NCBI GenBank assembly: GCA_900315065.1
Contig: OMXQ01000006.1
Location: forward strand, 7,100-71,099
Source: an uncultured Erysipelotrichaceae bacterium
GTDB lineage: Bacteria; Bacillota_I; Bacilli_A; Erysipelotrichales; Erysipelotrichaceae
Length of the DNA: 64,000 nt
Reading direction: 5' to 3'
Within the stretch, counting starts at the first letter, position 1; the number at the start of each line of letters is the position of its first letter. Both the position numbers and the translations under genes were made by a program. This document shows positions 2,537-13,962 of the stretch, one piece after another. A model generated the notes under the pieces. It made no database searches. It was not told the origin of the DNA and saw nothing but the letters and a program-made list of their open reading frames with translations.

Positions 2537-2561
2537 GCAGCTGCAGAATCAGATTATTACA

Positions 2562-2592
2562 GGGAGAATTGATCGTCAGTTCTCTCTTTTTC
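2562..2592 (+). terminator. Intrinsic terminator after MATE gene
   Basis: GAGAATTGA-TCG-TCAGTTCTC hairpin followed by a T-rich tract. Confidence 0.6.
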
Positions 2593-2601
2593 TTTGGCAA
2601 T

Positions 2602-2649
2602 TTGTCCTCTTTGTCTGAATTTATATAATTAATTAAATCATTTAATTAA
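2602..2649 (+). promoter_or_regulatory. Promoter of sugar cluster with palindromic operator TTAATTAA-N5-TTAATTAA (2629-2649)
   Basis: TTGTCC(2602-07), 16 bp, TATAAT(2624-29); perfect 10-bp inverted repeat TTAATTAAAT-C-ATTTAATTAA over the start region. Confidence 0.65.
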
Positions 2650-2697: not shown

Positions 2698-3651
2698 ATG
2701 TATGACGTATTAAGTGCCGGGATTGCGACCTGGGATACGATCTTTTCGGGTATCGATGCGGATATCATGGAAAAAGACGGGCAGACGGCAGAAGGATACT
2801 TTGCGGCAAGCGGCGGGGACGCGGTAAATGGTGCCGTTTCTTTAGCAAAGTTCGGGATGAAAACGGCTGTGTGTGCCTGCGTCGGTATGGATGAATCAGC
2901 AGGTCTGATTGAAGAAGATCTTCGCAAAGCCGGAGCAGATCCATATCTCTATCATGATCCGGATGTTCACACGGCTGCCCCGGTTCTATTGCTGGATGAA
3001 AAAGGAGAAAGACACATTATCCGGGTGCCGGATAACGGCAATCTCTTTTTCCGGGCGGATATGATTCCTGAAGAGCTGCTGAATCAGTGCAGACACCTGC
3101 ACATCGCCAGCGTAAACATGCTGGCAAAGCTGGACGGAAAGCCTCTGGCAGATTTATTTGCAAAGTGTCATGAAAAGGGCATTACGACTTCCCTTGATGC
3201 AAGCTATGACAAAAAGGGAAAATGGCTGGAAAACGTGGAAGGGGCATTGCATAACTGCGATATCTTCATTCCTTCTTTCCAGGAAGCCAGCATCTATGCA
3301 CAAAGTAAAAACATCGATGACATTATTGCTTTCTTCAGAAAATGGCCGCTGAAGATCTTCGGCATCAAGCTTGGTGCTGACGGCGTCGTGCTTACAGACT
3401 TCCGGAAAGTAATAAAATTACCGGCTTTGGCAGACGGAAAGGTTGTGGATACAACCGGAGCAGGAGATGCATTCATCTCTGCCTTTGTGGCAGCCTGGCT
3501 GAAAGGCTATGACCTGGCTTCTTCGGGTCTATTGGCAAGCGGCCAGTCAGCGATGGTACTTGGTTCCATTGGAGCCAACAAAGGTGCCGGTACTTTGGAA
3601 CAGGCAGCTGCGATCGTTGAGAAACACGGATATTCCTTAACAAAAAGATAA
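2698..3651 (+). CDS. PfkB/ribokinase-family sugar kinase (candidate sulfofructose kinase)
   Basis: SGGDAVNGAVSLAK N-terminal motif and VVDTTGAGDAF PfkB signature. Confidence 0.85.
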   Translation: MYDVLSAGIATWDTIFSGIDADIMEKDGQTAEGYFAASGGDAVNGAVSLAKFGMKTAVCACVGMDESAGLIEEDLRKAGADPYLYHDPDVHTAAPVLLLDEKGERHIIRVPDNGNLFFRADMIPEELLNQCRHLHIASVNMLAKLDGKPLADLFAKCHEKGITTSLDASYDKKGKWLENVEGALHNCDIFIPSFQEASIYAQSKNIDDIIAFFRKWPLKIFGIKLGADGVVLTDFRKVIKLPALADGKVVDTTGAGDAFISAFVAAWLKGYDLASSGLLASGQSAMVLGSIGANKGAGTLEQAAAIVEKHGYSLTKR

Positions 3652-3668
3652 ATTTTGTTACGCATATG

Positions 3669-3682
3669 TGTAAGCGCTTACG
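3669..3682 (+). promoter_or_regulatory. cre-like (CcpA/LacI-type) site
   Basis: TGTAAGCGCTTACG, palindromic core, in the pfkB-GH31 intergenic region. Confidence 0.6.
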
Positions 3683-3691
3683 AGGCTGACT

Positions 3692-5668
3692 ATGAAATTG
3701 ATCAAAGACAAATTGAAAAACATGCGGATAACGATCGGGATGGGGACGAACAATTTCACCATGAACCGGGGCAGCTTCCGCTATCGTCAGAAAATTGAAA
3801 AGAAAGTACCGCTTTATTGTATAAAGACGGAAGAAAACCCTGATGAAATCAGAATGATTTTTGCGGACAAAGAAAGAACAGAAATGGTAAATGCAATCTG
3901 CCGCAAAGCAGAAGCAGGATGGCAGATTCAGATCACCTGTCCGGATCAAAGTATCAACCGTTTCTGGCTGACAATGAAGCAGAACCATGAATCTTTCTAC
4001 GGGTGCGGGGAAACCTATAGTACCTTGAATCTCAAAGGTGAAAAGATCCGGATCTTTGTCGCCGAACATCAGAATACCATGCGGATCGGAAAGAAACTCA
4101 TCCGCACAAAGCTATTGGGAAAGCATCCTGAACATGTTGACCGCCTGACGGGATATGAATCCTATTATGCCCAGCCTGCTTTTGTATCAAGCGGGAAGTA
4201 TTTCGTGCATTGCGATGTCAGACAGTATTGTGAGTTTGATTTCCGCAAAGAAGATTCCTTCACCATGTATTTCCAGGAAGCGCCTTCTTTCCTGATGGCA
4301 GAAGCCGGCAGCTATGAAGCTTTGTCTTCTATATTGGCTGACAAGCTTGGTCATCAGCACGATTTGCCGGATTGGATTGATGACGGCATTATCCTGGCCA
4401 TCCAGCAGGGAACTGACGTTCTGAAGACGAAACTGGAAGAATGCAGAAAAGCAGGCATTCATGTCAACGGCATCTGGTCTCAGGACTGGTGCGGCTGCCG
4501 GAAAACGGGATTCGGCTATCAGGTCATGTGGAACTGGAAGTATGATGAAAGTCTCTACCATGATCTGCCGTCCTTCATACAGGAACTTCATCAGGAACAC
4601 ATTCACTTCCTCGGTTATATCAATCCTTTCCTGGCATTGGAAAAAGATATTTATCAGGAAGCAAAGGCAAAAGACTATTGCGTGAAGAACAAAGACGGCG
4701 AAGATTATCTGGTCAAAATCACGACTTTCCCGGCTGCCATGATCGATTTCACCAATCCGGAAGCGTATGCCTGGTACAAGAATCTGATCAAAGAAAATAT
4801 GATCGGCATCGGCATGGACGGCTGGATGGCTGACTTCGGTGAATACCTGCCGCTGGATGCAGTTCTGTACAGTAAGGAAGACCCGGCGGTACTTCATAAT
4901 CAATGGCCGGCAATCTGGGCAAAGCTTAATCGGGAAGCAATTGTTGAATCCGGTAAAGAAGGACAGGTTTTCTTCTTTACCAGAGCGGGCAATACCGGAA
5001 CAATTAAGTACAGCGATATGATGTGGACCGGCGACCAGCACGTTGACTGGTCCATGGATGACGGCCTGCCGAGTGTGATTCCTGCTTCTCTTTCGCTTGG
5101 AATGAGCGGGTTCGGGATCTCACATTCTGATGCGGGCGGCTATACAACCTTGTTTGATATGAACCGTTCCAAAGAACTTCTGCTGAGGTGGCTGGAGATG
5201 AATATCTTTTCGCCGCTGCTGCGGACACATGAGGGCAACCAGCCTGTCAGAAATGTTCAGTTTGATACCGATGAAGAAACCCTCCGTTATACAGCATTCG
5301 CATCTGCTTTGCATAAAGCATTGAAGCCTTATCTGAGGGAAGTCAGAAAAGAATGCATTGAAAAAGGAACGCCGATGATGCGGCCGCTCTTCTATCACTA
5401 TCCAGGCTTTGAAGATGAAAGAGAAGAATACCTGCTGGGCAGGGATATCCTGGTAGCTCCCATCATCAAAGAAGGTGCCTTAAAACGGGAAGTCCGTCTG
5501 CCGGACGATACCTGGATAGAAGCCGGTACCGGTAAATTGTATACAAAGGGAACCTATATAATTGATGCTCCTTTGTATCATCCGCCTGTCTTTATCAGGC
5601 AGTCATCACAATGGAAAGATTCACTGATCACAAGTATTCAGGGAAAGGAAAAATTCTATGAAAAATAA
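3692..5668 (+). CDS. yihQ: GH31 alpha-glucosidase, YihQ/sulfoquinovosidase-like
   Basis: GWMADFGEYLP nucleophile motif, MMWTGDQHVDWSMDDGL, SDAGGYTTLF, QDWCGCRKTGFGYQVMWNW segments match YihQ as recalled. Confidence 0.8.
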   Translation: MKLIKDKLKNMRITIGMGTNNFTMNRGSFRYRQKIEKKVPLYCIKTEENPDEIRMIFADKERTEMVNAICRKAEAGWQIQITCPDQSINRFWLTMKQNHESFYGCGETYSTLNLKGEKIRIFVAEHQNTMRIGKKLIRTKLLGKHPEHVDRLTGYESYYAQPAFVSSGKYFVHCDVRQYCEFDFRKEDSFTMYFQEAPSFLMAEAGSYEALSSILADKLGHQHDLPDWIDDGIILAIQQGTDVLKTKLEECRKAGIHVNGIWSQDWCGCRKTGFGYQVMWNWKYDESLYHDLPSFIQELHQEHIHFLGYINPFLALEKDIYQEAKAKDYCVKNKDGEDYLVKITTFPAAMIDFTNPEAYAWYKNLIKENMIGIGMDGWMADFGEYLPLDAVLYSKEDPAVLHNQWPAIWAKLNREAIVESGKEGQVFFFTRAGNTGTIKYSDMMWTGDQHVDWSMDDGLPSVIPASLSLGMSGFGISHSDAGGYTTLFDMNRSKELLLRWLEMNIFSPLLRTHEGNQPVRNVQFDTDEETLRYTAFASALHKALKPYLREVRKECIEKGTPMMRPLFYHYPGFEDEREEYLLGRDILVAPIIKEGALKREVRLPDDTWIEAGTGKLYTKGTYIIDAPLYHPPVFIRQSSQWKDSLITSIQGKEKFYEK

Positions 5669-7133
5669 AAACAAAGAAGATAGTCTTCTCGCCAAAGCCG
5701 GGTATGGATTTGCGGATGTTTACGGCGGCGGTGCCTTTGTCGTCATTTCTACTTTCTATACAGTCTTTCTGACCAAAGCACAATCCATGCCGGTTGCTTT
5801 AGCCGGGACAATTCCGTTAATCGGCAAGATCTGGGATGCGGTAACCGATCCGATTATGGGCAACATCGCGGATCGCACAAAATCAAAGTTCGGGGCCAAG
5901 CGTTTCTATATCCTGATCGGCAGTTTCGTGTCAGCTCTGACATTTGCTTTGATGTGGGTGCCTTTCAACGGCAATATGACAGCCCGCTACATCTTCTATG
6001 TAATGATGTATATGTTGTTCTCAACCGGATTTACCATCGTCATGGTTCCTTACAACGGCTTATTGCCGGACATGGTAGATGATTACAAGAAGCGTTCTTC
6101 CTTTACCAGCGTCAGAATGATCTTCTCAACTTTCGGCGCTATTCTTGCCGGTCTGATTCCGACTTTGTTAATCAGAGACAATACCAATGCGGCTCAGTAT
6201 ATGAGGGTCGGTCTGATCTTTGCAGTTTTATTCCTGATTGTGATTCTGCTGACCTTTGCTTTGACTTGGGAAAAGCAGAAAGAACCAGTCAGAATGAGTA
6301 TGGCTGAAAGTTTCCGCCAGTCTTTCTCCGTTTACAAAAGCAGATCCTTCCGTCTGTTTATCGGCATCTTCCTGACTGGCCAGGCAGCGGCAGATTTCTT
6401 TACCGGCTTAGCTGTGTATTACGTAGATGATGTTTTGAATGCTTACGGCGGCGGCAGGTTTACGATCCTGATGGGAGTATTGCTGATTGCCCAGTTTGTC
6501 GGTACCATTTTATTCTCATTGATCATTACGAAGAAATCCAAGCAGTTCCCGTTATTGATTACTTTCCCTTTCAGAATCATCGCAACCGCTGCACTTCTCT
6601 TCTTCTCGCATGAAGGGACTCCGTTTATTGCTATTCTGATTTTATCCTTCATGATCGGTGTTTCCATGGCAGGTACGACAACAACCATTTATGCCATTCT
6701 GAGTGATCTGGCTGATGTGGATGAATTGATTACCGGCGTATCAAGACCGGCTACAGTTTCTGCGATGGCAACTTTTATCCGCAAGGTTGCAACCGGAGCA
6801 GCATCTGCCGTGATCGGCGTATTGTTATCAATGGTCGGCTATGATGAAGTACTGGCAAGTTCCGGACAAAGACAGACAGCCTTTACCCAGCACGGCATTG
6901 CGCTCATCTTTGTCATTGCCCCGATCATCCTGAATGTCGCCGCGTATCTTTTTACGAAGACCTTCCCGATGAAGGAAAAGGAATTCGCGGTGATCAAGAA
7001 AGAAATCGCCAGAAGAAAAGGCGAAGATACAAGTATTGCGACAGAAGAAGAAAAGAAGATCTGTGCAGCTGTAACAGGCTATGCATATGAAGATCTCTGG
7101 CAGAAAGAAAATATAGAAAAGAGGACAAATTGA
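5658..7133 (+). CDS. MFS glycoside-pentoside-hexuronide (MelB/YihO-like) symporter
   Basis: WDAVTDPIMGNIADRTKSKFG motif, VPYNGLLPDM, 12-TM pattern. Confidence 0.85.
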   Translation: MKNKNKEDSLLAKAGYGFADVYGGGAFVVISTFYTVFLTKAQSMPVALAGTIPLIGKIWDAVTDPIMGNIADRTKSKFGAKRFYILIGSFVSALTFALMWVPFNGNMTARYIFYVMMYMLFSTGFTIVMVPYNGLLPDMVDDYKKRSSFTSVRMIFSTFGAILAGLIPTLLIRDNTNAAQYMRVGLIFAVLFLIVILLTFALTWEKQKEPVRMSMAESFRQSFSVYKSRSFRLFIGIFLTGQAAADFFTGLAVYYVDDVLNAYGGGRFTILMGVLLIAQFVGTILFSLIITKKSKQFPLLITFPFRIIATAALLFFSHEGTPFIAILILSFMIGVSMAGTTTTIYAILSDLADVDELITGVSRPATVSAMATFIRKVATGAASAVIGVLLSMVGYDEVLASSGQRQTAFTQHGIALIFVIAPIILNVAAYLFTKTFPMKEKEFAVIKKEIARRKGEDTSIATEEEKKICAAVTGYAYEDLWQKENIEKRTN

Positions 7134-7134
7134 A

Positions 7135-7998
7135 ATGACGAAAATTGGTTTTGTGGGACTTGGAATTATGGGAGAAGCCATGTGCGGCAACATCGTTCGT
7201 AAGAATGACGGGCCTGTTTATGTCTTCGATTTCGTAAAGGAGAAGGTGGATAAGCTGGCAGAAATCGGTGCCATTGCATGTTCTTCTTCAAAGGAAGTTG
7301 CTGAAAAGTGCGATGTCTTTGTTTCCATGGTACCGAAGAGTGAACACTCAAGAGCTGTGTATGATGAAATTATCCCGGTATTGAGAAAAGGACAGCTGTG
7401 CATTGACATGAGTACCATTGATCCTTCTGTTTCCGTAGAAATTTCAAAGAAAGTAAAGGAAACCGGTGCAGAATTCATCGACGCACCAGTCGTCAAATCC
7501 AGACCGGCAGCCGAAGCAGGCAAGCTTGGCATTTATGTGGGCGGCAGTGAAGAAGCATACAGACAGGCACTTCCGATCCTTTCTTTCATGGGAGAGAATG
7601 TTATCCGCATGGGTGATAACGGCAGGGGCCTGGTCATGAAAATCTGTCACAATGCCCTTGTTTCCCAGATCCAGAACGGCGTCAATGAAACCAGCACCCT
7701 GGCCGCAAGAAACGGCATTGATATTCAGACTTTCGCTAAGGCAATCAGCTATGGCGGCGGGCAGAACTTCTATCTGGATTCCAAGAAGGACGTCATTGAA
7801 AAAGAAGACTTTACAACTGCTTTTTCCATTGCCAACATGCACAAGGATGTTCATATCTGTCTGAAGCTGGCAGAACAGACCAATACAAAAATGCCTGGTG
7901 AAGAAAACGCTGCCCGTGTCTATGACAAGGCAATGGAAGAAAACCTGGGCGGGGAAGACTTCGCGGCCACAATCAAGGTTGTCAGAGGCTTGAAATGA
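7135..7998 (+). CDS. NAD(P)-dependent beta-hydroxyacid dehydrogenase (candidate sulfolactaldehyde reductase, YihU-like)
   Basis: IGFVGLGIMG Rossmann motif, IDMSTIDP, FIDAPV, catalytic K in VMKICHN. Confidence 0.8.
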   Translation: MTKIGFVGLGIMGEAMCGNIVRKNDGPVYVFDFVKEKVDKLAEIGAIACSSSKEVAEKCDVFVSMVPKSEHSRAVYDEIIPVLRKGQLCIDMSTIDPSVSVEISKKVKETGAEFIDAPVVKSRPAAEAGKLGIYVGGSEEAYRQALPILSFMGENVIRMGDNGRGLVMKICHNALVSQIQNGVNETSTLAARNGIDIQTFAKAISYGGGQNFYLDSKKDVIEKEDFTTAFSIANMHKDVHICLKLAEQTNTKMPGEENAARVYDKAMEENLGGEDFAATIKVVRGLK

Positions 7999-8669
7999 CC
8001 CTGCTGGAACACCTGCAGGCATGTAATACCATGCCGGTTTATGATGCTCATTCTGATGCCTTCCGTTCTTATGGAAGATTTGTCAAAGGAGACTATTTCA
8101 AAAAGGAGCTGGAAGTATTGGAAACCATGCCAATTCCTTCGGAAGGAAATCAGTACATTCCTTCAGTAAAAGAGCTGGAAATTCCTGAGATCAAAGCAAA
8201 GATTGAGAAAGAACTCTACGGCGGCATGGAAATCCAGATCGGTTATTGCAACGGCCGCAATTCAACGATCAATGGTTTTGAATACCACAAGGGCAGTGAA
8301 ATCAATGCGGCTGCCTGTGACTTTGTCCTGGCACTGGGCCATGTCTGGGAGATCGATGATCTTCATTATGACATCTCCAAAGCAAAGCTCTTCCTTTTCC
8401 GCAAAGGAGACGTCTTAGAAATGTATCAGACAACTCTTCATCTCAGTCCGATCAAAGTTTGCGACGAAGGCTTCCGGGACCTGGTGGTATTGCCGAAAGG
8501 AACCAACACGGATCTTGAAACAGAGAAAACAGCCCATCCGGAAGATCCGGAAACCAGACTGCTCATCAAAAAAAACAAGTGGGTGATTTCTCATCCGGAC
8601 AGAAAACCATTAATCGACCAGGGTGCTTATCCTGGTGTCATGGGTGAGAATTACGAACTCAAGTACTGA
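7995..8669 (+). CDS. DUF4867 family protein (SftX/SqvB-like, found in sulfoglycolysis clusters)
   Basis: QIGYCNGRNSTINGFEYHKGSEIN, YQTTLHLSP, VVLPKGTN, KNKWVISHP motifs. Confidence 0.7.
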   Translation: MTLLEHLQACNTMPVYDAHSDAFRSYGRFVKGDYFKKELEVLETMPIPSEGNQYIPSVKELEIPEIKAKIEKELYGGMEIQIGYCNGRNSTINGFEYHKGSEINAAACDFVLALGHVWEIDDLHYDISKAKLFLFRKGDVLEMYQTTLHLSPIKVCDEGFRDLVVLPKGTNTDLETEKTAHPEDPETRLLIKKNKWVISHPDRKPLIDQGAYPGVMGENYELKY

Positions 8670-8671
8670 TC

Positions 8672-9370
8672 ATGATTGTGTTTGCATTGATTGTGCTGAT
8701 TGCCAATATCATCCAGGGTATTACCGGTTTTGCCGGAACCATTCTGGCCATGCCTTTCTCTTTGTTAACCGAAGGACCAGGCATAGCAATCCCGGCTCTG
8801 AACTTTTTCGGCCTTCTGGCTGGCATTCTGGTGGTCGCAAAGCATTGGAAAGATCTTGACTGGAAGGAATTTTCAAAAATCATTCTGTGTGCGCTGCCAT
8901 CCATGCTAGCAGGCATTGTGATTCAGAAACAGATGGCTTCTCACGCAGAGGTCATGTATAAAATGCTCGGCATCCTGGTCATTGTCATTGCGGTATGCGG
9001 TATGAAAAATATCCAGTTCGGCAAACACCGTGAGTGGATGATTCTCGCTTCCGGCGTTGTACACGGCATGTATGTGTGCGGCGGACCCTTATTAACAGGG
9101 TATCTCACGACAAGGATTCATGAAAAGCAGAAGTTCAGAGTGACAATCTCAGCAGTATGGATCCTTCTCAACGGGATGCTGATGATCTCTGAAGCAAGAC
9201 AGGGAATGTGGAAGGCGGCAAGCATCAGAGCAACTGCATTGACGACTCCCTTCCTGGTTGCAGGCATGTTCATCGGCGGCAGACTTGCGGAAAAAATGAG
9301 CAGGGAAACTTTTATGAAGATTACCTATATTCTGCTGATCATTGCCGGCATCTCTCTGCTGGTCAAATAG
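8672..9370 (+). CDS. TauE/SafE family (sulfonate/sulfite) exporter
   Basis: QGITGFAGTILAMP and GGP motifs, ~8 TM segments, 232 aa. Confidence 0.8.
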   Translation: MIVFALIVLIANIIQGITGFAGTILAMPFSLLTEGPGIAIPALNFFGLLAGILVVAKHWKDLDWKEFSKIILCALPSMLAGIVIQKQMASHAEVMYKMLGILVIVIAVCGMKNIQFGKHREWMILASGVVHGMYVCGGPLLTGYLTTRIHEKQKFRVTISAVWILLNGMLMISEARQGMWKAASIRATALTTPFLVAGMFIGGRLAEKMSRETFMKITYILLIIAGISLLVK

Positions 9371-9409
9371 CATCAAGATAAAATACAAAGTAAGAAAAAG
9401 AGGAAAATT

Positions 9410-10750
9410 ATGAATTTTCAGGCAGCTTATATACCTGTGGGCGTCGGCACCTTCCATATGGAAAGCGCAGACAAGGCCATGCAGGAAAGCATTGATACAT
9501 TAAAGGCAATTGATCCTGAGGTTGCAGTACCTGAGGAAAAACTGCTGACACTGGATCTTCTGCGGAAATATCTGGCAGGTCTCTCACCGGATCTTCTGGT
9601 CTTTCAGAATCTGACCTTCGCCAACAGCGCATACATGAGTGAAGTCATGCATGCATTCCCGGATGTGCCGTTAGTCATCTGGACTTTGCGGGAGCCGGTC
9701 ATTGACGGCGGCAGACTGCGGCTGAATTCTCTGACAGGTGCCTACAGCGCAGCCAATCTGGTCCGTGCTTTTACGGATCGCAAATTTGTTTATATCTATG
9801 GAGCAGCCACAGAAGAAAAGGTAAAAACAACCCTTGCCCATGCCGTATCTGCTGCCAGACTCAGAAAAGAAATGCAGAGTCTGACCATCAGTGCAGTCGG
9901 TCATACCCCGGAAGGATTCGGCTTCGGCAGAGCCCTGGACCAGGATCTTCTGAAGACATTCGGTGTCCGTCTTTCTTCCATTGAAGCAAGAGAACTGATT
10001 CATACTGCTGAATCCTATTCAGAAGAAGAGATCAGACCATATCTTGAAAAGGCATGCAAGGCAACGGTTGCCCTGGATCAGATTCCGGAAAAGAACCAGC
10101 TTGGCTTTGCGAGATTATATAAAGCCTACAGCGACTATGTCACAAAGAATCACATCGGTGCCCTTGCCTCGAGATGCTGGCCGGATTTCTTTACTTCCTT
10201 CGGTACGCCTGTATGTATGGTACTGGCCATGCTGAATGATATGGGAGTTGCGGCAGCGTGCGAAGCTGATACTTATGGAGCTTTGTCCATGTGGTGCGGC
10301 ATGAAACTGTCACATCAGGCTGTCTTCTTCGGTGATCCGGTAAGTCTTGATGAAGAGAAGAATACCGTGACTTTCTGGCATTGCGGGACGGCTGCCTGCT
10401 CTTTGGCAAGAGAAGATACCGGGGCAAGAGTCGGCGTGCATTGCAACCGCAAGATCGGACCAACGCTTGAATTCGGCACAAAGCCAAGCAAAGATGCAGT
10501 GATCTTCCGCATCGGCAGAAAAGCTGACGGAACTTTCCGCTTCCTGATCGCAAAAGGATCCTGTCTTGATATGCCGCAGCAGTTCTACGGTACTTCCAGC
10601 GTAATTCAACTTCAGACAAGTGCAGAAGACTTTGTCAAAGAAACAGTTCAGGACGGCTGGGAACCTCATTATGTGGTAATCTATGAGGACACAGCTGAAG
10701 AGCTGAAAATGCTGGGGGATATGCTTGGCATTGAAGTAAAAGAATACTAA
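9410..10750 (+). CDS. L-fucose/L-arabinose isomerase family protein (candidate sulfoquinovose isomerase SqvD/SftI)
   Basis: LRLNSLTG, RCWPDFF, ACEADTYGA, FWHCG, WEPHY motifs; cluster context. Confidence 0.8.
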   Translation: MNFQAAYIPVGVGTFHMESADKAMQESIDTLKAIDPEVAVPEEKLLTLDLLRKYLAGLSPDLLVFQNLTFANSAYMSEVMHAFPDVPLVIWTLREPVIDGGRLRLNSLTGAYSAANLVRAFTDRKFVYIYGAATEEKVKTTLAHAVSAARLRKEMQSLTISAVGHTPEGFGFGRALDQDLLKTFGVRLSSIEARELIHTAESYSEEEIRPYLEKACKATVALDQIPEKNQLGFARLYKAYSDYVTKNHIGALASRCWPDFFTSFGTPVCMVLAMLNDMGVAAACEADTYGALSMWCGMKLSHQAVFFGDPVSLDEEKNTVTFWHCGTAACSLAREDTGARVGVHCNRKIGPTLEFGTKPSKDAVIFRIGRKADGTFRFLIAKGSCLDMPQQFYGTSSVIQLQTSAEDFVKETVQDGWEPHYVVIYEDTAEELKMLGDMLGIEVKEY

Positions 10751-10784
10751 ACACAACAACAAAGAAGAAAAGGAGGAGAAGCCT

Positions 10785-11840
10785 ATGCGCAGCGGTATGA
10801 ACATGAGTGCCATGAAGGAAACAAACAGACGTGCGATCCTGCAATGCATTTATGAAGAAGGACCTATGTCGAGAAAAGACCTGGCTGCTGCAACCGGTCT
10901 GACCCAGGCTTCTCTGACCCAGATCAGTTCTGCTTTGATCCAGGAAGGCATCCTGGAAGAAAGCGGGGCAGTTTCCAATCAGAAAGCCGGCAGAAAAAAA
11001 GTTCTGCTGGATATCAATTGTGATTACGGTGTGATTGCAGTTATGAATATCGATCGTGAAAAGACGGTGTTTTCTATATGCAATCTCAAAGGCAATGTCC
11101 TTGATGAAAAGCAGATCCGTACCTTGAAAGCAGAACCGGAAAAATTCCTGCAGAAAGCAGGAGAAGAAATGCTGGCAATGATACAAAATTGTCCTGCAGA
11201 TATTCTGGGCTTAAGCGTCGGTATTGCCGGCAGTGTCAGAGACGGCATCTCCCGGAAAGAAAACGGCATCTGGAGAAAGAATGTCAATGTTGCAGGGATC
11301 CTGACTGCTGCAACAAAACTGGATGTCATCGTTGAAAATAACGTCAGTGCATTTGTCATCGGTGAAAAGCTTTTCGGTACAAAGAAAGCAGAAAACCTCT
11401 TAGCTGTAAAATGGGGACCGGGACTCGGTTCTGCAATCATGATCAAAGACCACCTTTATGAAGGAAAGGAAAGACCGGAACTCGGCCGCTTCCTGGATCA
11501 GAAGGGACAGAGACTGGAAAATAAAGTATCTTTGGAAAGTCTCAGGAAGATTGACGATTTCTCACCGGATACTTTCTATCTTCATTGCACAGAAGAAAAA
11601 TACAGCCCTGTCTTTGATGCTTTGAGTACAGCGGTTGTCAATGCAGCATCTTTGTTAAGACCGGATGCAATCGTAATATACGGGGATCTTTGTCAGGAAG
11701 AAGCAGTCAGTGACTGCCTGATTCATGCCTGCCTGGCAAAGGATGCCGGCACTGGAAAGATCATGTATCATTCCTCTTTGCTTGAAAAAGAAAACTATAT
11801 CGGACCAGCGGCTGTCTATATTGAAAGGCGTCTGTTCTGA
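10785..11840 (+). CDS. ROK family transcriptional regulator
   Basis: N-terminal wHTH (SRKDLAAATGLTQASLTQI), VENNVSAF, GPGLGSAI ROK motifs. Confidence 0.85.
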   Translation: MRSGMNMSAMKETNRRAILQCIYEEGPMSRKDLAAATGLTQASLTQISSALIQEGILEESGAVSNQKAGRKKVLLDINCDYGVIAVMNIDREKTVFSICNLKGNVLDEKQIRTLKAEPEKFLQKAGEEMLAMIQNCPADILGLSVGIAGSVRDGISRKENGIWRKNVNVAGILTAATKLDVIVENNVSAFVIGEKLFGTKKAENLLAVKWGPGLGSAIMIKDHLYEGKERPELGRFLDQKGQRLENKVSLESLRKIDDFSPDTFYLHCTEEKYSPVFDALSTAVVNAASLLRPDAIVIYGDLCQEEAVSDCLIHACLAKDAGTGKIMYHSSLLEKENYIGPAAVYIERRLF

Positions 11841-11880: not shown

Positions 11881-12042
11881 TCAGTCAGCTGTCCTTAAAG
11901 AGGCAGTCTGAACTTTGTTCACTTTTTCTTTTCTGCTTACTGCAATGTATTCTTCGCTCTTGTCATTCTTCATGACTGTTTCATCTGTATCAGTAATACC
12001 GAAACAGAAGGCAGCCAGAGCATTTCTAACAATGTCCTTCAT
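11881..12042 (-). CDS. Small hypothetical protein (53 aa, MKDIVRNALAAFCFGITD...), not in the ORF track
   Basis: Translated by hand; SD GAGGAAG; TTGCAC-16-TATGAT promoter at 12094-12067. Confidence 0.55.
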   Translation of the reverse strand: MKDIVRNALAAFCFGITDTDETVMKNDKSEEYIAVSRKEKVNKVQTASLRTAD

Positions 12043-12130: not shown

Positions 12131-12151
12131 TTAATTAAAATTGTTAATTAA
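12131..12151. promoter_or_regulatory. Second TTAATTAA-N5-TTAATTAA operator box
   Basis: TTAATTAA-AATTG-TTAATTAA; same geometry as 2629-2649. Confidence 0.6.
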
Positions 12152-12181: not shown

Positions 12182-12266
12182 TTCTTAGTCTTTTTCTTAG
12201 TCATTTCGTTTCTTTCTTGGTCATTTTATAAAAAATGACTAAGAAAGGCTGAAGATGACAAAGAAA
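12182..12266. repeat. Dyad array of TTTCTTDGTCAT boxes
   Basis: Forward boxes 12193-12204 and 12213-12224, inverted boxes 12235-12246 and 12255-12266, partial box 12182-12190. Confidence 0.8.
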
Positions 12267-12372
12267 GAAAATTACACATTCCGCATCAGAATAAGTAAAA
12301 TGATGATGCGAAAGCGAACCGATTAAGGAATGTCATATTCCCCATTCGACGATAATTATTGGAGAAACAGAA

Positions 12373-12555
12373 ATGCATAAACTTACTGATAAACAATATG
12401 AAGAGTATCAACGTCTGTGCTATGCCCGGGACCACGGAAGATTATTGACACCGGATGGACTGCGGTTTATCTGCGAAGCCTGTGAGTATGATCCTGAAAA
12501 AATAGGAAAACATTTTCTGGAAGTGCTGCCAAAGATACTCTGTGAAGATAAATAA
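12373..12555 (+). CDS. Small conserved-looking hypothetical protein (60 aa)
   Basis: GGAG SD; MHKLTDKQYEEYQRLCYARDHGRLLTPDGLRFIC reads as a real protein. Confidence 0.6.
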   Translation: MHKLTDKQYEEYQRLCYARDHGRLLTPDGLRFICEACEYDPEKIGKHFLEVLPKILCEDK

Positions 12556-12621
12556 GAAGCAGATGACTTATACATTGGCGGATGAATGCCTGAGAGGATT
12601 GGAAAAATTCAGTCTTCTCTT

Positions 12622-13962
12622 TTATTTATTCTGCTGTTTTTCTTCAGCCCGTTTTCTGGCTTTCCATTCTTCAATCTGACGTTTTCTTTCAGCTACTCTT
12701 TTTTCAACACCCTGATCAGAAGGGTTGTAGTATTTCTTGCCTTCCAGTTTACCCGGCAGACATTGAAGGGTAGTCAGGTGTTCCTTGAAGTCATGGGCAT
12801 ATTGGTAGTTTTTTCCATAGCCGAGTTCTTCCATGAGCTTTGTCGGTGCATTTCTGATCTGCAGCGGTACCGGCTCGCTTAAAGTATTGCGGGCATCTTT
12901 GGCAGCTGCTTCATAAGCCATGTAGAGAGAATTGGATTTCGGTGCCAGGGAACAAAAGACAACTGCATGGGTCAGATGAACAGAACATTCCGGCATGCCG
13001 AGAAACTGGCAGGCCTGATAAGCTGCGATTGCGATCTGAAGAGCACGGCTGTCAGCCATGCCGATATCTTCAGAAGCAAAGCGGACAATGCGTCTGGCAA
13101 TATAGAGAGGGTCTTCGCCGCCTTCCAGCATTCTTGCCAGCCAGTATACTGCCGCATCTGCATCCGAGTTTCTCATAGATTTATGGAGGGCACTGATGAG
13201 GTTGTAGTGTTCTTCCCCGTTCTTGTCATACAGCAGCATCTTGCCGCTGATGCACTGCTTTACAATTTCTTTTGTTACTTTGGAAGCAATGCTGGAAGTC
13301 TGACCGGACAAGACAGCTAATTCCAGAGTATTCAATGCTGTTCTTGCGTCTCCGTTTGCATATTCAGCGATCAGATGCAGGGAGGCATCATCAATTGCCA
13401 CGTCCATGTTTGCAAAGCCTCTCTGGTCTTTCAAGGTTCTTTTAAGAAGGTCATAGAGGTCTTCTGTATCCAATGGTTCCAGGGTAAAGACCTTGCATCT
13501 GGAAAGCAGAGCGTTGTTGATCTCGAAAGAAGGGTTCTCCGTAGTAGCACCGATGAGCGTAATCGATCCTCTTTCTACATAAGGCAGAAAGGCATCCTGC
13601 TGGGCTTTGTTGAAACGGTGGATTTCATCAATGAAGACAATGGTCTTCTGACCCATTTCACGGGCAGATTCGGCCTTGTTCATGACTTCCTTGATTTCTT
13701 TGATACCGCTGGTAACGGCAGAGAAAGTGATGAATTCAGCTTTGGTATAACGGGCTATGAGACGGGCAAGAGTGGTCTTGCCGACCCCCGGCGGACCCCA
13801 GAAAATCATGGACTGGACTTCATCGCGTTCAATCATAGTACGGATGATTCTGCCTTCGCCAAGCAGGTGTTTCTGCCCGATATATTCATCCAGTGTCATC
13901 GGCCGCATGCGGTCTGCCAATGGTGTATCAGCTTCATTATGGAATAGAGATGTCTGCTTCAT
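12622..13962 (-). CDS. rarA: Replication-associated recombination protein A (RarA/MgsA)
   Basis: [59 protein letters not shown]. Confidence 0.95.

Follow-up and report, generated by a model that had tools for sequence, protein, structure and literature searches.

This report concerns a 64-kb stretch of DNA from an uncultured Erysipelotrichaceae bacterium (hereafter the window, part of contig C78 of the host assembly) and a cluster of eight genes at positions 2698-11840 that is predicted to degrade sulfoquinovose (SQ). We assign a probability of about 0.5 to the reading that this is an inducible operon for SQ or its glycosides, in which SQ would be isomerized to 6-deoxy-6-sulfofructose (SF), SF phosphorylated at C1, the phosphate cleaved by a class II aldolase encoded outside the operon and the resulting sulfolactaldehyde (SLA) reduced to 2,3-dihydroxypropane-1-sulfonate (DHPS). 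A narrower proposal, made tentatively, is that Erysipelotrichaceae possess a third solution of the Embden-Meyerhof-Parnas (EMP) type, where a YdjH-like kinase makes SF 1-phosphate (SFP) and the glycolytic class II fructose-1,6-bisphosphate aldolase (FBA), shared with glycolysis, cleaves it. The host assembly is a metagenome-assembled genome (MAG) of 2.52 Mb in 144 contigs, 96.5% complete. Gene identities come from Pfam and NCBIfam profile searches, and the argument uses computed gene content, orthology and collinearity, the linkage of kinase and cluster, the lack of a dedicated cleavage gene and a box unique to the locus.

The eight open reading frames (ORFs) all lie on the plus strand with intergenic distances of -11 to +40 bp and are, in order:

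2698..3651, plus strand: PfkB-family kinase of a YdjH-like clade, predicted 6-deoxy-6-sulfofructose 1-kinase, gene 1 of the operon (PF00294, 131 bits).
3692..5668, plus strand: YihQ-family GH31, predicted sulfoquinovosidase (PRK10426, the YihQ model, 744 bits against a cut-off of 553).
5658..7133, plus strand: GPH/MFS_2 cation symporter, predicted importer of SQ or SQ-glycerol (profile search; 67% identity to the symporter of a Butyrivibrio sulfo-transaldolase, sulfo-TAL, cluster).
7135..7998, plus strand: HIBADH-type beta-hydroxyacid dehydrogenase, predicted SLA reductase of the SftR type (80% identity to the Butyrivibrio sulfo-TAL reductase).
7995..8669, plus strand: DUF4867 cupin, SftX/SqvB (229 bits; the metal ligands E-x-H-x3-E...H are kept).
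8672..9370, plus strand: TauE/SafE-family exporter, predicted DHPS exporter of the SftE type (profile search; 44% identity to the Butyrivibrio TauE).
9410..10750, plus strand: fucose-isomerase-family enzyme, predicted SQ isomerase of the SftI/SqvD type (NF048012, 393 bits; 64% identity to the Butyrivibrio isomerase).
10785..11840, plus strand: ROK-family transcriptional regulator with an N-terminal winged helix (profile searches).

The initial annotation of this DNA described just such a co-oriented set devoid of a cleavage enzyme, and all eight genes were recovered at its coordinates and on its strand. Neither the cluster nor the rest of the 64-kb window encodes a homologue of an aldolase, transaldolase or transketolase. 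Homologues of the window genes carry the NCBI labels Solobacterium sp., Lactimicrobium sp. and Erysipelotrichaceae bacterium, and originate from gut and rumen metagenomes.

The layout is not peculiar to this genome. The initial annotation had proposed looking for it elsewhere, and a kinase-first arrangement lacking an aldolase recurs, in addition to the window, at L012-L016, L030, L031 and L130-L139, amounting to 14 species genomes and further metagenome contigs with differing flanks. The recurring order is kinase-GH31-(GPH)-reductase-(DUF4867)-isomerase-(ROK). Carriers include contigs labelled Solobacterium (L012, L013), a bovine-gut contig (L030) and the species genomes G031, G116 and G044, and a MAG labelled Lactimicrobium (L031) has the cluster with the kinase divergently oriented. 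No aldolase, transaldolase or transketolase gene was found beside the recurring clusters in flanks of up to 10 kb on each side, less on short contigs. Of 151 sampled genomes of the family, the four with this GH31 cluster all have the kinase and the remaining 147 lack it; within the order, 14 of 401 genomes bear the kinase, which abuts the cluster in 12 of them. Genomes of the same genus often lack the cluster. That eight intact ORFs and their layout are kept in at least 14 species genomes at about 40-60% divergence requires purifying selection.

Comparison with established systems indicates where the cluster came from. Butyrivibrio sp. FCS014 (L036), an abundant gut contig (L037; its protein turns up in 113 blocks of the collection) and a MAG of Treponemataceae (L038) share the arrangement GH31-(GPH)-TAL_FSA (228 aa)-reductase-(DUF4867)-TauE-isomerase-ROK. 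This gene set is the sulfo-TAL set SftA/G/T/R/X/E/I of Bacillus aryabhattai, E. rectale and C. symbiosum (Frommeyer et al., PMC7491151). The window order is the sulfo-TAL order minus SftT, the transaldolase, and plus a kinase in front. Besides the identities to Butyrivibrio listed above, those of the GH31 and the ROK regulator are 57% and 40%, and overall these values are as high as in comparisons of the window with further clusters of the kinase type. Maximum-likelihood trees unite the kinase-type clusters in a single clade adjacent to the TAL type and far from the sulfo-transketolase (sulfo-TK) type, with support of 91/96 for the GH31 and 97/96 for the isomerase. Judged from these sequence relationships, the window operon belongs to the sulfo-TAL type, with a kinase taking the place of sftT in function if not in position. 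The initial annotation saw a hybrid of two sulfo-EMP pathways; the mixed gene set it pointed out is real, but the framing gives way to that of a sulfo-TAL-type cluster with sftT exchanged for a YdjH-like kinase.

Reviews up to 2026 recognize sulfo-EMP, EMP2, Entner-Doudoroff (ED), TAL, TK, alkanesulfonate monooxygenase (ASMO) and alkanesulfonate dioxygenase (ASDO) routes (PMC12890257). With sulfo-TAL the window shares collinear, orthologous GH31, GPH, SLA reductase, DUF4867, TauE, SftI and ROK genes and the predicted product DHPS, whereas SftT/SqvA (PF00923, about 228 aa) is missing and the cluster opens with an additional PfkB kinase gene. Sulfo-EMP2 (SqvB/SqvD/SqiK/SqiA; Bacillus urumqiensis, Megamonas rupellensis; PMC9594981) has the SqvD-type isomerase and DUF4867 (SqvB) in common with it, and the predicted chemistry, SF to SFP to dihydroxyacetone phosphate (DHAP) and SLA through a class II aldolase, would be the same; however, the window kinase is PF00294 (PfkB, YdjH-like) rather than a PfkA-family SqiK, there is no SqiA (PF01116) in the cluster and the genome holds no clear SqiA orthologue. 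Escherichia coli sulfo-EMP1 (YihQ/R/S/V/T/U) resembles it in the YihQ-family glycosidase, a kinase of the PfkB superfamily and an SLA reductase of the beta-hydroxyacid-dehydrogenase type, but YihS, YihR and YihT are absent, the isomerase belongs to the fucose-isomerase family and the kinase lacks the YihV triad. From sulfo-TK it differs in having neither SqwGH nor SqwI. For each named pathway tested the cluster lacks the defining genes: SftT, SqiK/SqiA, YihS/V/T or SqwGH. Hybrid EMP1/2 clusters mixing non-orthologous isozymes are already documented, in Proteobacteria and Actinobacteria and not in Firmicutes; that survey was seeded on the aldolase, and all of its clusters contain one (PMC10665668). 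Taken together, the comparisons suggest that the cluster would work most like an EMP-type route on a TAL-type chassis.

The kinase deserves particular attention. The initial annotation set it beside YihV, the PfkB kinase of E. coli sulfo-EMP, but it is not YihV-like: the nearest characterised relative is E. coli YdjH (PDB 3in1, E 2.7e-33), and in hhalign comparisons the kinase family matches YdjH with E 2e-40 over 311 columns without gaps, as opposed to E 2e-16 for YihV. Identity between the window kinase and YdjH is only 28%. The catalytic DTTGAGD motif (D251-D257) is invariant across the clade, as are the basic residues R105, H106, R109, H133 and H135 and also N140, most of which have no counterpart in YdjH. 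RefSeq names YdjH an L-glycero-L-galacto-octuluronate kinase and the adjacent YdjI a class II aldolase for the resulting 1-phosphate. The YdjH/YdjI pair thus offers a likeness, in that an anionic ketose is phosphorylated at C1 ahead of a class II aldolase, together with clear differences: the low identity, the clade-invariant H106, R109, H133, H135 and N140 that are not shared, and a wholly different genomic context. By analogy, the logic of YdjH is the same as would be needed to convert SF to SFP, and the window enzyme, if it is an SF kinase, would represent a third type, with neither YihV nor SqiK as an orthologue. A scan of metagenome contigs with the kinase alignment, whose motifs are generic, returned only relatives at no more than about 35% identity, mostly below 31%. 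From a scan of genome contigs came a single short contig. A role as housekeeping fructose 6-phosphate kinase is ruled out; the genome has three PfkA-family (PF00365) genes, all on contigs other than that of the cluster, and the kinase is absent from 147 of the 151 family genomes.

Control of the operon appears to be local. The operon is preceded by a MatE efflux gene (1172-2536) and followed by a RarA gene on the opposite strand (12622-13962), and the sequence elements at its ends are:

2561..2587, plus strand: terminator-like hairpin and T-run closing the upstream MatE gene and dividing it from the operon (from the sequence).
2602..2629, plus strand: promoter-like site TTGTCC-16-TATAAT, 10/12 matches, directly 5' of the kinase gene.
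2629..2649, no strand: palindromic box TTAATTAAATCATTTAATTAA, putative ROK operator, a perfect 10-1-10 palindrome overlapping the promoter-like site.
12131..12151, no strand: another copy of the box, TTAATTAAAATTGTTAATTAA, about 290 bp beyond the stop codon of the ROK gene.

The hairpin and the promoter-like site indicate that the transcription unit starts immediately 5' of the kinase; another TATAAT occurs upstream of that gene at about 2659. Allowing one error or fewer per half-site, the TTAATTAA-N5-TTAATTAA box is matched twice in the 2.52-Mb genome, once at each end of the cluster, and at up to three substitutions there is no site on the contigs that carry the class II aldolases (C54, C64) or the short transaldolase-family protein (C80) considered below. 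With the box confined to 2629 and 12131, no unlinked gene appears to belong to the ROK regulon. In L030 the box-then-TATAAT arrangement upstream of the kinase is kept although the upstream genes differ. The second box, which was not found in L030, precedes a small ORF on the minus strand (about 11900-12042) by about 90 bp and is also upstream of a 60-residue plus-strand ORF (12374-12556), with inverted repeats nearby at 12193-12270; operator looping and control of a small adjacent ORF are possibilities.

A route can be proposed, in which every substrate and reaction is a prediction. A sulfo-TAL-type ancestor would have lost sftT and gained a YdjH-like PfkB kinase as the first gene of its operon. 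The GPH symporter would take up SQ-glycerol or SQ, the GH31 would liberate SQ and the SftI-type isomerase, perhaps helped by DUF4867, would convert it to SF. The kinase would then add phosphate at C1 to give SFP, to be split into DHAP and SLA by a class II aldolase encoded outside the operon, for which the housekeeping FBA is the likeliest candidate and an aldolase that is linked to a phosphotransferase system (PTS) and lacks the 6-phosphate-binding Arg the second. The reductase would turn SLA into DHPS for export by TauE, and the ROK protein would repress the operon through its box.

The genome was searched for the missing activity. As the initial annotation had suggested, homologues of SqiA, YihT, SftT and SqwGH were sought, and there is no sftT, no yihT and no cluster-linked sqiA equivalent, whilst the transketolase looks like a housekeeping enzyme. 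The assembled genome, 96.5% complete, holds no sftT orthologue; its sole PF00923 (TAL_FSA) protein, at C80:37781-38521, is 31% identical to SftT, whereas SftT orthologues of three distant taxa are, on inspection of the alignment, about 70% identical to one another. A YihT-like class I aldolase was not found, the sole PF01791 protein being DeoC-like and of 223 residues. No cleavage enzyme dedicated to SQ is encoded in the assembled genome. The suggestion in the initial annotation of a variant that borrows an unlinked cleavage enzyme and makes DHPS gains from the conserved layout, the kinase linkage, the lack of sftT, yihT and a cluster-linked sqiA and the orthologous reductase and TauE.

Two class II aldolases (PF01116) are encoded, neither in the cluster. 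The first, at C64:1057-1953, is a Bacillus-type FBA (TIGR01859, 368 bits against a cut-off of 343; PDB 3q94, 289 bits) with orthologues in relatives at 76-79% identity. The second, at C54:20235-21119, belongs to a PTS operon that is kept in G116 and G044. SFP has the D-threo configuration of fructose, which suits FBA-type class II aldolases and not a FucA-like enzyme. Dedicated class II SFP aldolases (SqiA) have Ala257 instead of a 6-phosphate-binding Arg (PMC10665668). Aligned together with YaSqiA, the FBA keeps this Arg ('DPRK') and the C54 aldolase has Leu ('NYLG').

It is unlikely, though the best of the rival explanations, that the same route ends in cleavage by the C54 enzyme, acting as a ketose-1-phosphate aldolase that accepts SFP. 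Its Leu falls where dedicated SFP aldolases have Ala257, and orthologues of the C54 type are found in three of the four cluster-bearing genomes compared with about 17 of 151 in the family sample overall. The operon structure also points this way. At C54:17850-21119 (L006 5851-9120), as at L128 7910-10994 and L129 3-2549, two small ORFs precede a fructose-like PTS EIIC and the class II aldolase and there is no kinase; of these only EIIC and the aldolase are annotated by profile, EIIA and EIIB being putative by size and position. An EIIA-EIIB-EIIC-aldolase operon of this kind suggests a monophosphorylated ketose as substrate, and the missing 6-phosphate-binding Arg in a kinase-less PTS operon suggests direct cleavage of a PTS-delivered ketose 1-phosphate. 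Set against this, the C54 type is absent from the cluster-bearing genome G031 (only 85% complete), is common in genomes without the cluster and sits in its own PTS operon without a ROK box. It also fares worse than FBA in a comparison with clusters from Feifania hominis (L009 8560-14353) and L127 (1746-8561), which comprise a LysR regulator, a transporter, a PfkB kinase, an FBA-like class II aldolase, a split transketolase and an Asp/Glu-racemase-family protein. The kinases of these two loci are nested inside the clade of SQ-cluster kinases, at 50-52% identity, and the adjoining class II aldolase, which retains the Arg, shares 50% identity with the FBA of the window genome as against 31% with the C54 type. 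The Feifania-type cluster may itself serve a pathway for another anionic ketose. On balance these sequence comparisons favour FBA as the common denominator, with the C54 type as runner-up for the borrowed aldolase.

A different possibility, to which we would give low odds, dispenses with SFP altogether. SF would remain unphosphorylated and be split by an unlinked enzyme of the fructose-6-phosphate aldolase (FSA)/transaldolase family, either with transfer of the C3 unit to glyceraldehyde 3-phosphate or with release of dihydroxyacetone, and the kinase would act on a product such as dihydroxyacetone, the smallest of the 2-ketoses. FSA-type enzymes take many aldehyde partners, a short FSA/TalC-like protein is present in all four cluster genomes examined, and the sulfo-TAL ancestry of the cluster is in keeping with the idea. 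Nevertheless the homologue is far less similar to SftT than SftT orthologues are to each other, it has no ROK box, no PfkB-family dihydroxyacetone kinase is known and the loss of sftT would be left unexplained. Its partner, moreover, is a glycyl-radical enzyme, as in another pathway: at C80:37781-40900 (L005 9782-12902) the short FSA/TalC-like aldolase adjoins a PFL2-type glycyl-radical enzyme, an arrangement that resembles E. coli fsa/pflD-ybiW, and the pairing is kept in G031 (L119).

Other candidates were rejected. The single FucA/RhaD-type aldolase (PF00596), on C107, lies in a DHAP-shunt setting, and its C3/C4 stereochemistry does not fit SFP. At C107:3328-5956 (L035) a DeoD-type nucleoside phosphorylase, MtnA and the FucA-like class II aldolase form a DHAP-shunt-like module for 5'-deoxy-nucleoside salvage, near which a TnpB gene occupies 555-2039. 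The split transketolase on C61 and the phosphoketolase XFP on C124 both look like housekeeping enzymes; the identities of the former to the transketolase subunits (putative SqwGH) encoded in a related cluster of the sulfo-TK type are 47% and 35%. Conservation of the SftR-type reductase speaks for a C3 sulfonate as product and not one of C2 or C4. DUF4867 as a hidden aldolase was discarded: the kinase-type clusters L015 and L134 do without it, and TAL, TK and EMP2 clusters have it alongside cleavage enzymes of their own (PMC11968277).

Several observations weigh against the proposed route through SFP. Solo kinases without SQ genes occur at L010, L033, L126, L140 and L141 and might signal another role for the kinase. 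The YihV sulfonate triad K27/N109/R138 reads G/R/A in the window kinase, only position 109 being an invariant Arg. In the GH31 the equivalent of the sulfonate-binding R301 of YihQ is Gln ('FGYQVMW'), which leaves the R301-W304-Y508 triad incomplete. The sulfoglycolytic enzymes of E. coli were found to be specific for sulfosugars (PMC8006165), and the FBA keeps the Arg that dedicated SFP aldolases lack, so that its cleavage of SFP may not be efficient. Finally the genome is a 144-contig MAG and the FBA is placed on a contig of 2.4 kb. With respect to the first point, solo kinases are scattered in the kinase tree among the cluster-linked kinases, one of them grouping with the kinase of a decayed cluster (L032), and they are best read as leftovers of cluster loss. 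That cluster (L032 5490-9994) is a decaying one of the kinase type, with an intact kinase, a GH31 fragment of 298 residues, a reductase fragment of 195 residues, DUF4867 and an isomerase of 399 residues; L033, syntenic with it, retains the kinase alone, so that the pair gives a snapshot of cluster loss. As for the missing sulfonate pockets of the YihV and YihU types, the lineages are too distant for their lack to be decisive.

The nature of the substrate bears on a further alternative, that a related 6-modified glucoside rather than SQ is degraded by an analogous route of isomerase, 1-kinase, aldolase and reductase. The window GH31 matches the structure of E. coli YihQ (5aed) at E 1e-175, keeps the catalytic pair, with WMADFGE and WTGDQ motifs that align with D405 and D472 of 5aed, and retains the equivalents of W304, Y508, Q262 and Q288. 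An Arg occupies the R301 position in four solved sulfoquinovosidases (E. coli YihQ, the A. tumefaciens enzyme, E. rectale SftG and 8r56), compared with the 'YQ' form in all 120 of the best GH31 homologues, which come from several phyla and include members from Erysipelotrichaceae, Butyrivibrio and Treponemataceae. The alternative also draws on the occurrence of DUF4867 and fucose-isomerase-family pairs in non-sulfosugar contexts (PMC11968277), and on the YihU sulfonate-pocket residues N174 and S178, which are not conserved in the window reductase. We regard it as improbable. The 'YQ' GH31s include those of clusters with SftT, TauE and SftI, a related 'TQ' form ends a complete sulfo-TK-type operon that holds an Arg-type GH31 too, the other YihQ residues are kept and the window cluster includes TauE. 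The association of 'YQ' and 'TQ' GH31s with sulfosugar clusters favours an SQ-related substrate, and the initial annotation's suggestion of a cluster for a related sugar is weakened, with the missing canonical Arg in its favour and the sftT- and TauE-bearing clusters against it.

The 'FGYQ' site lies at 4475-4500 of the window (GH31 residues about 262-270) and corresponds to Lys/Ala-Arg of the solved sulfoquinovosidases; by the published 'RWY' rule this clade would not be called sulfoquinovosidases, in spite of its sftT/TauE/SftI cluster context. The operon with the 'TQ' enzyme is on contig C11 of G093, from another genus of Erysipelotrichaceae (L019 8559-20000, L020 1-11074). It is a complete sulfoacetate-forming operon of the sulfo-TK type in the order DUF4867, Arg-type GH31, ABC transporter, SqvD, split transketolase, RpiB-like isomerase, exporter, aldehyde dehydrogenase, CoA ligase, GPH, Gln-type GH31 and ROK, and hence has two different GH31s.

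At 393 bits the isomerase falls below the strict NCBIfam cut-off of 700 bits for NF048012, which is no concern because isomerases of sftT-bearing sulfo-TAL-type clusters and of one sulfo-TK-type cluster reach only 400-418 bits. Among solved structures searched by sequence none matches it. A neighbourhood survey of DUF4867 places it, among sulfosugar pathways, in TAL, TK and EMP2 contexts only (PMC11968277).

That the cluster is a non-functional or partial remnant left by sftT loss, with the kinase an unrelated neighbour, is very improbable: decayed L032, the solo kinases and the cluster-less genomes of the same genus lend it something, but against it stand the eight intact ORFs, the layout held at such divergence in at least 14 species genomes, and a kinase that shares the promoter and putative operator of the cluster and moves with it into different flanks.

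Surveys of SQ degraders rely on known cleavage enzymes (YihT, SqiA, SftT, SqwGH) or on canonical gene sets. They would miss a cluster that lacks a cleavage gene and has a kinase of an unrecognized type, or score it as incomplete, and rumen and gut Erysipelotrichaceae would go uncounted as SQ degraders; in the literature searched there is no substantive link between sulfoquinovose and Erysipelotrichaceae, only passing mentions in two papers. The cluster-linked YihQ clade without the Arg also bears on the sequence rules by which sulfoquinovosidases are called in metagenomes. If the proposed route is correct, a third family of SF kinases would have been recruited independently, and the exchange of a single gene, transaldolase for kinase, would convert sulfo-TAL into sulfo-EMP. 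A glycolytic aldolase would then serve sulfoglycolysis as well, unlike the strict segregation of enzymes reported in E. coli.

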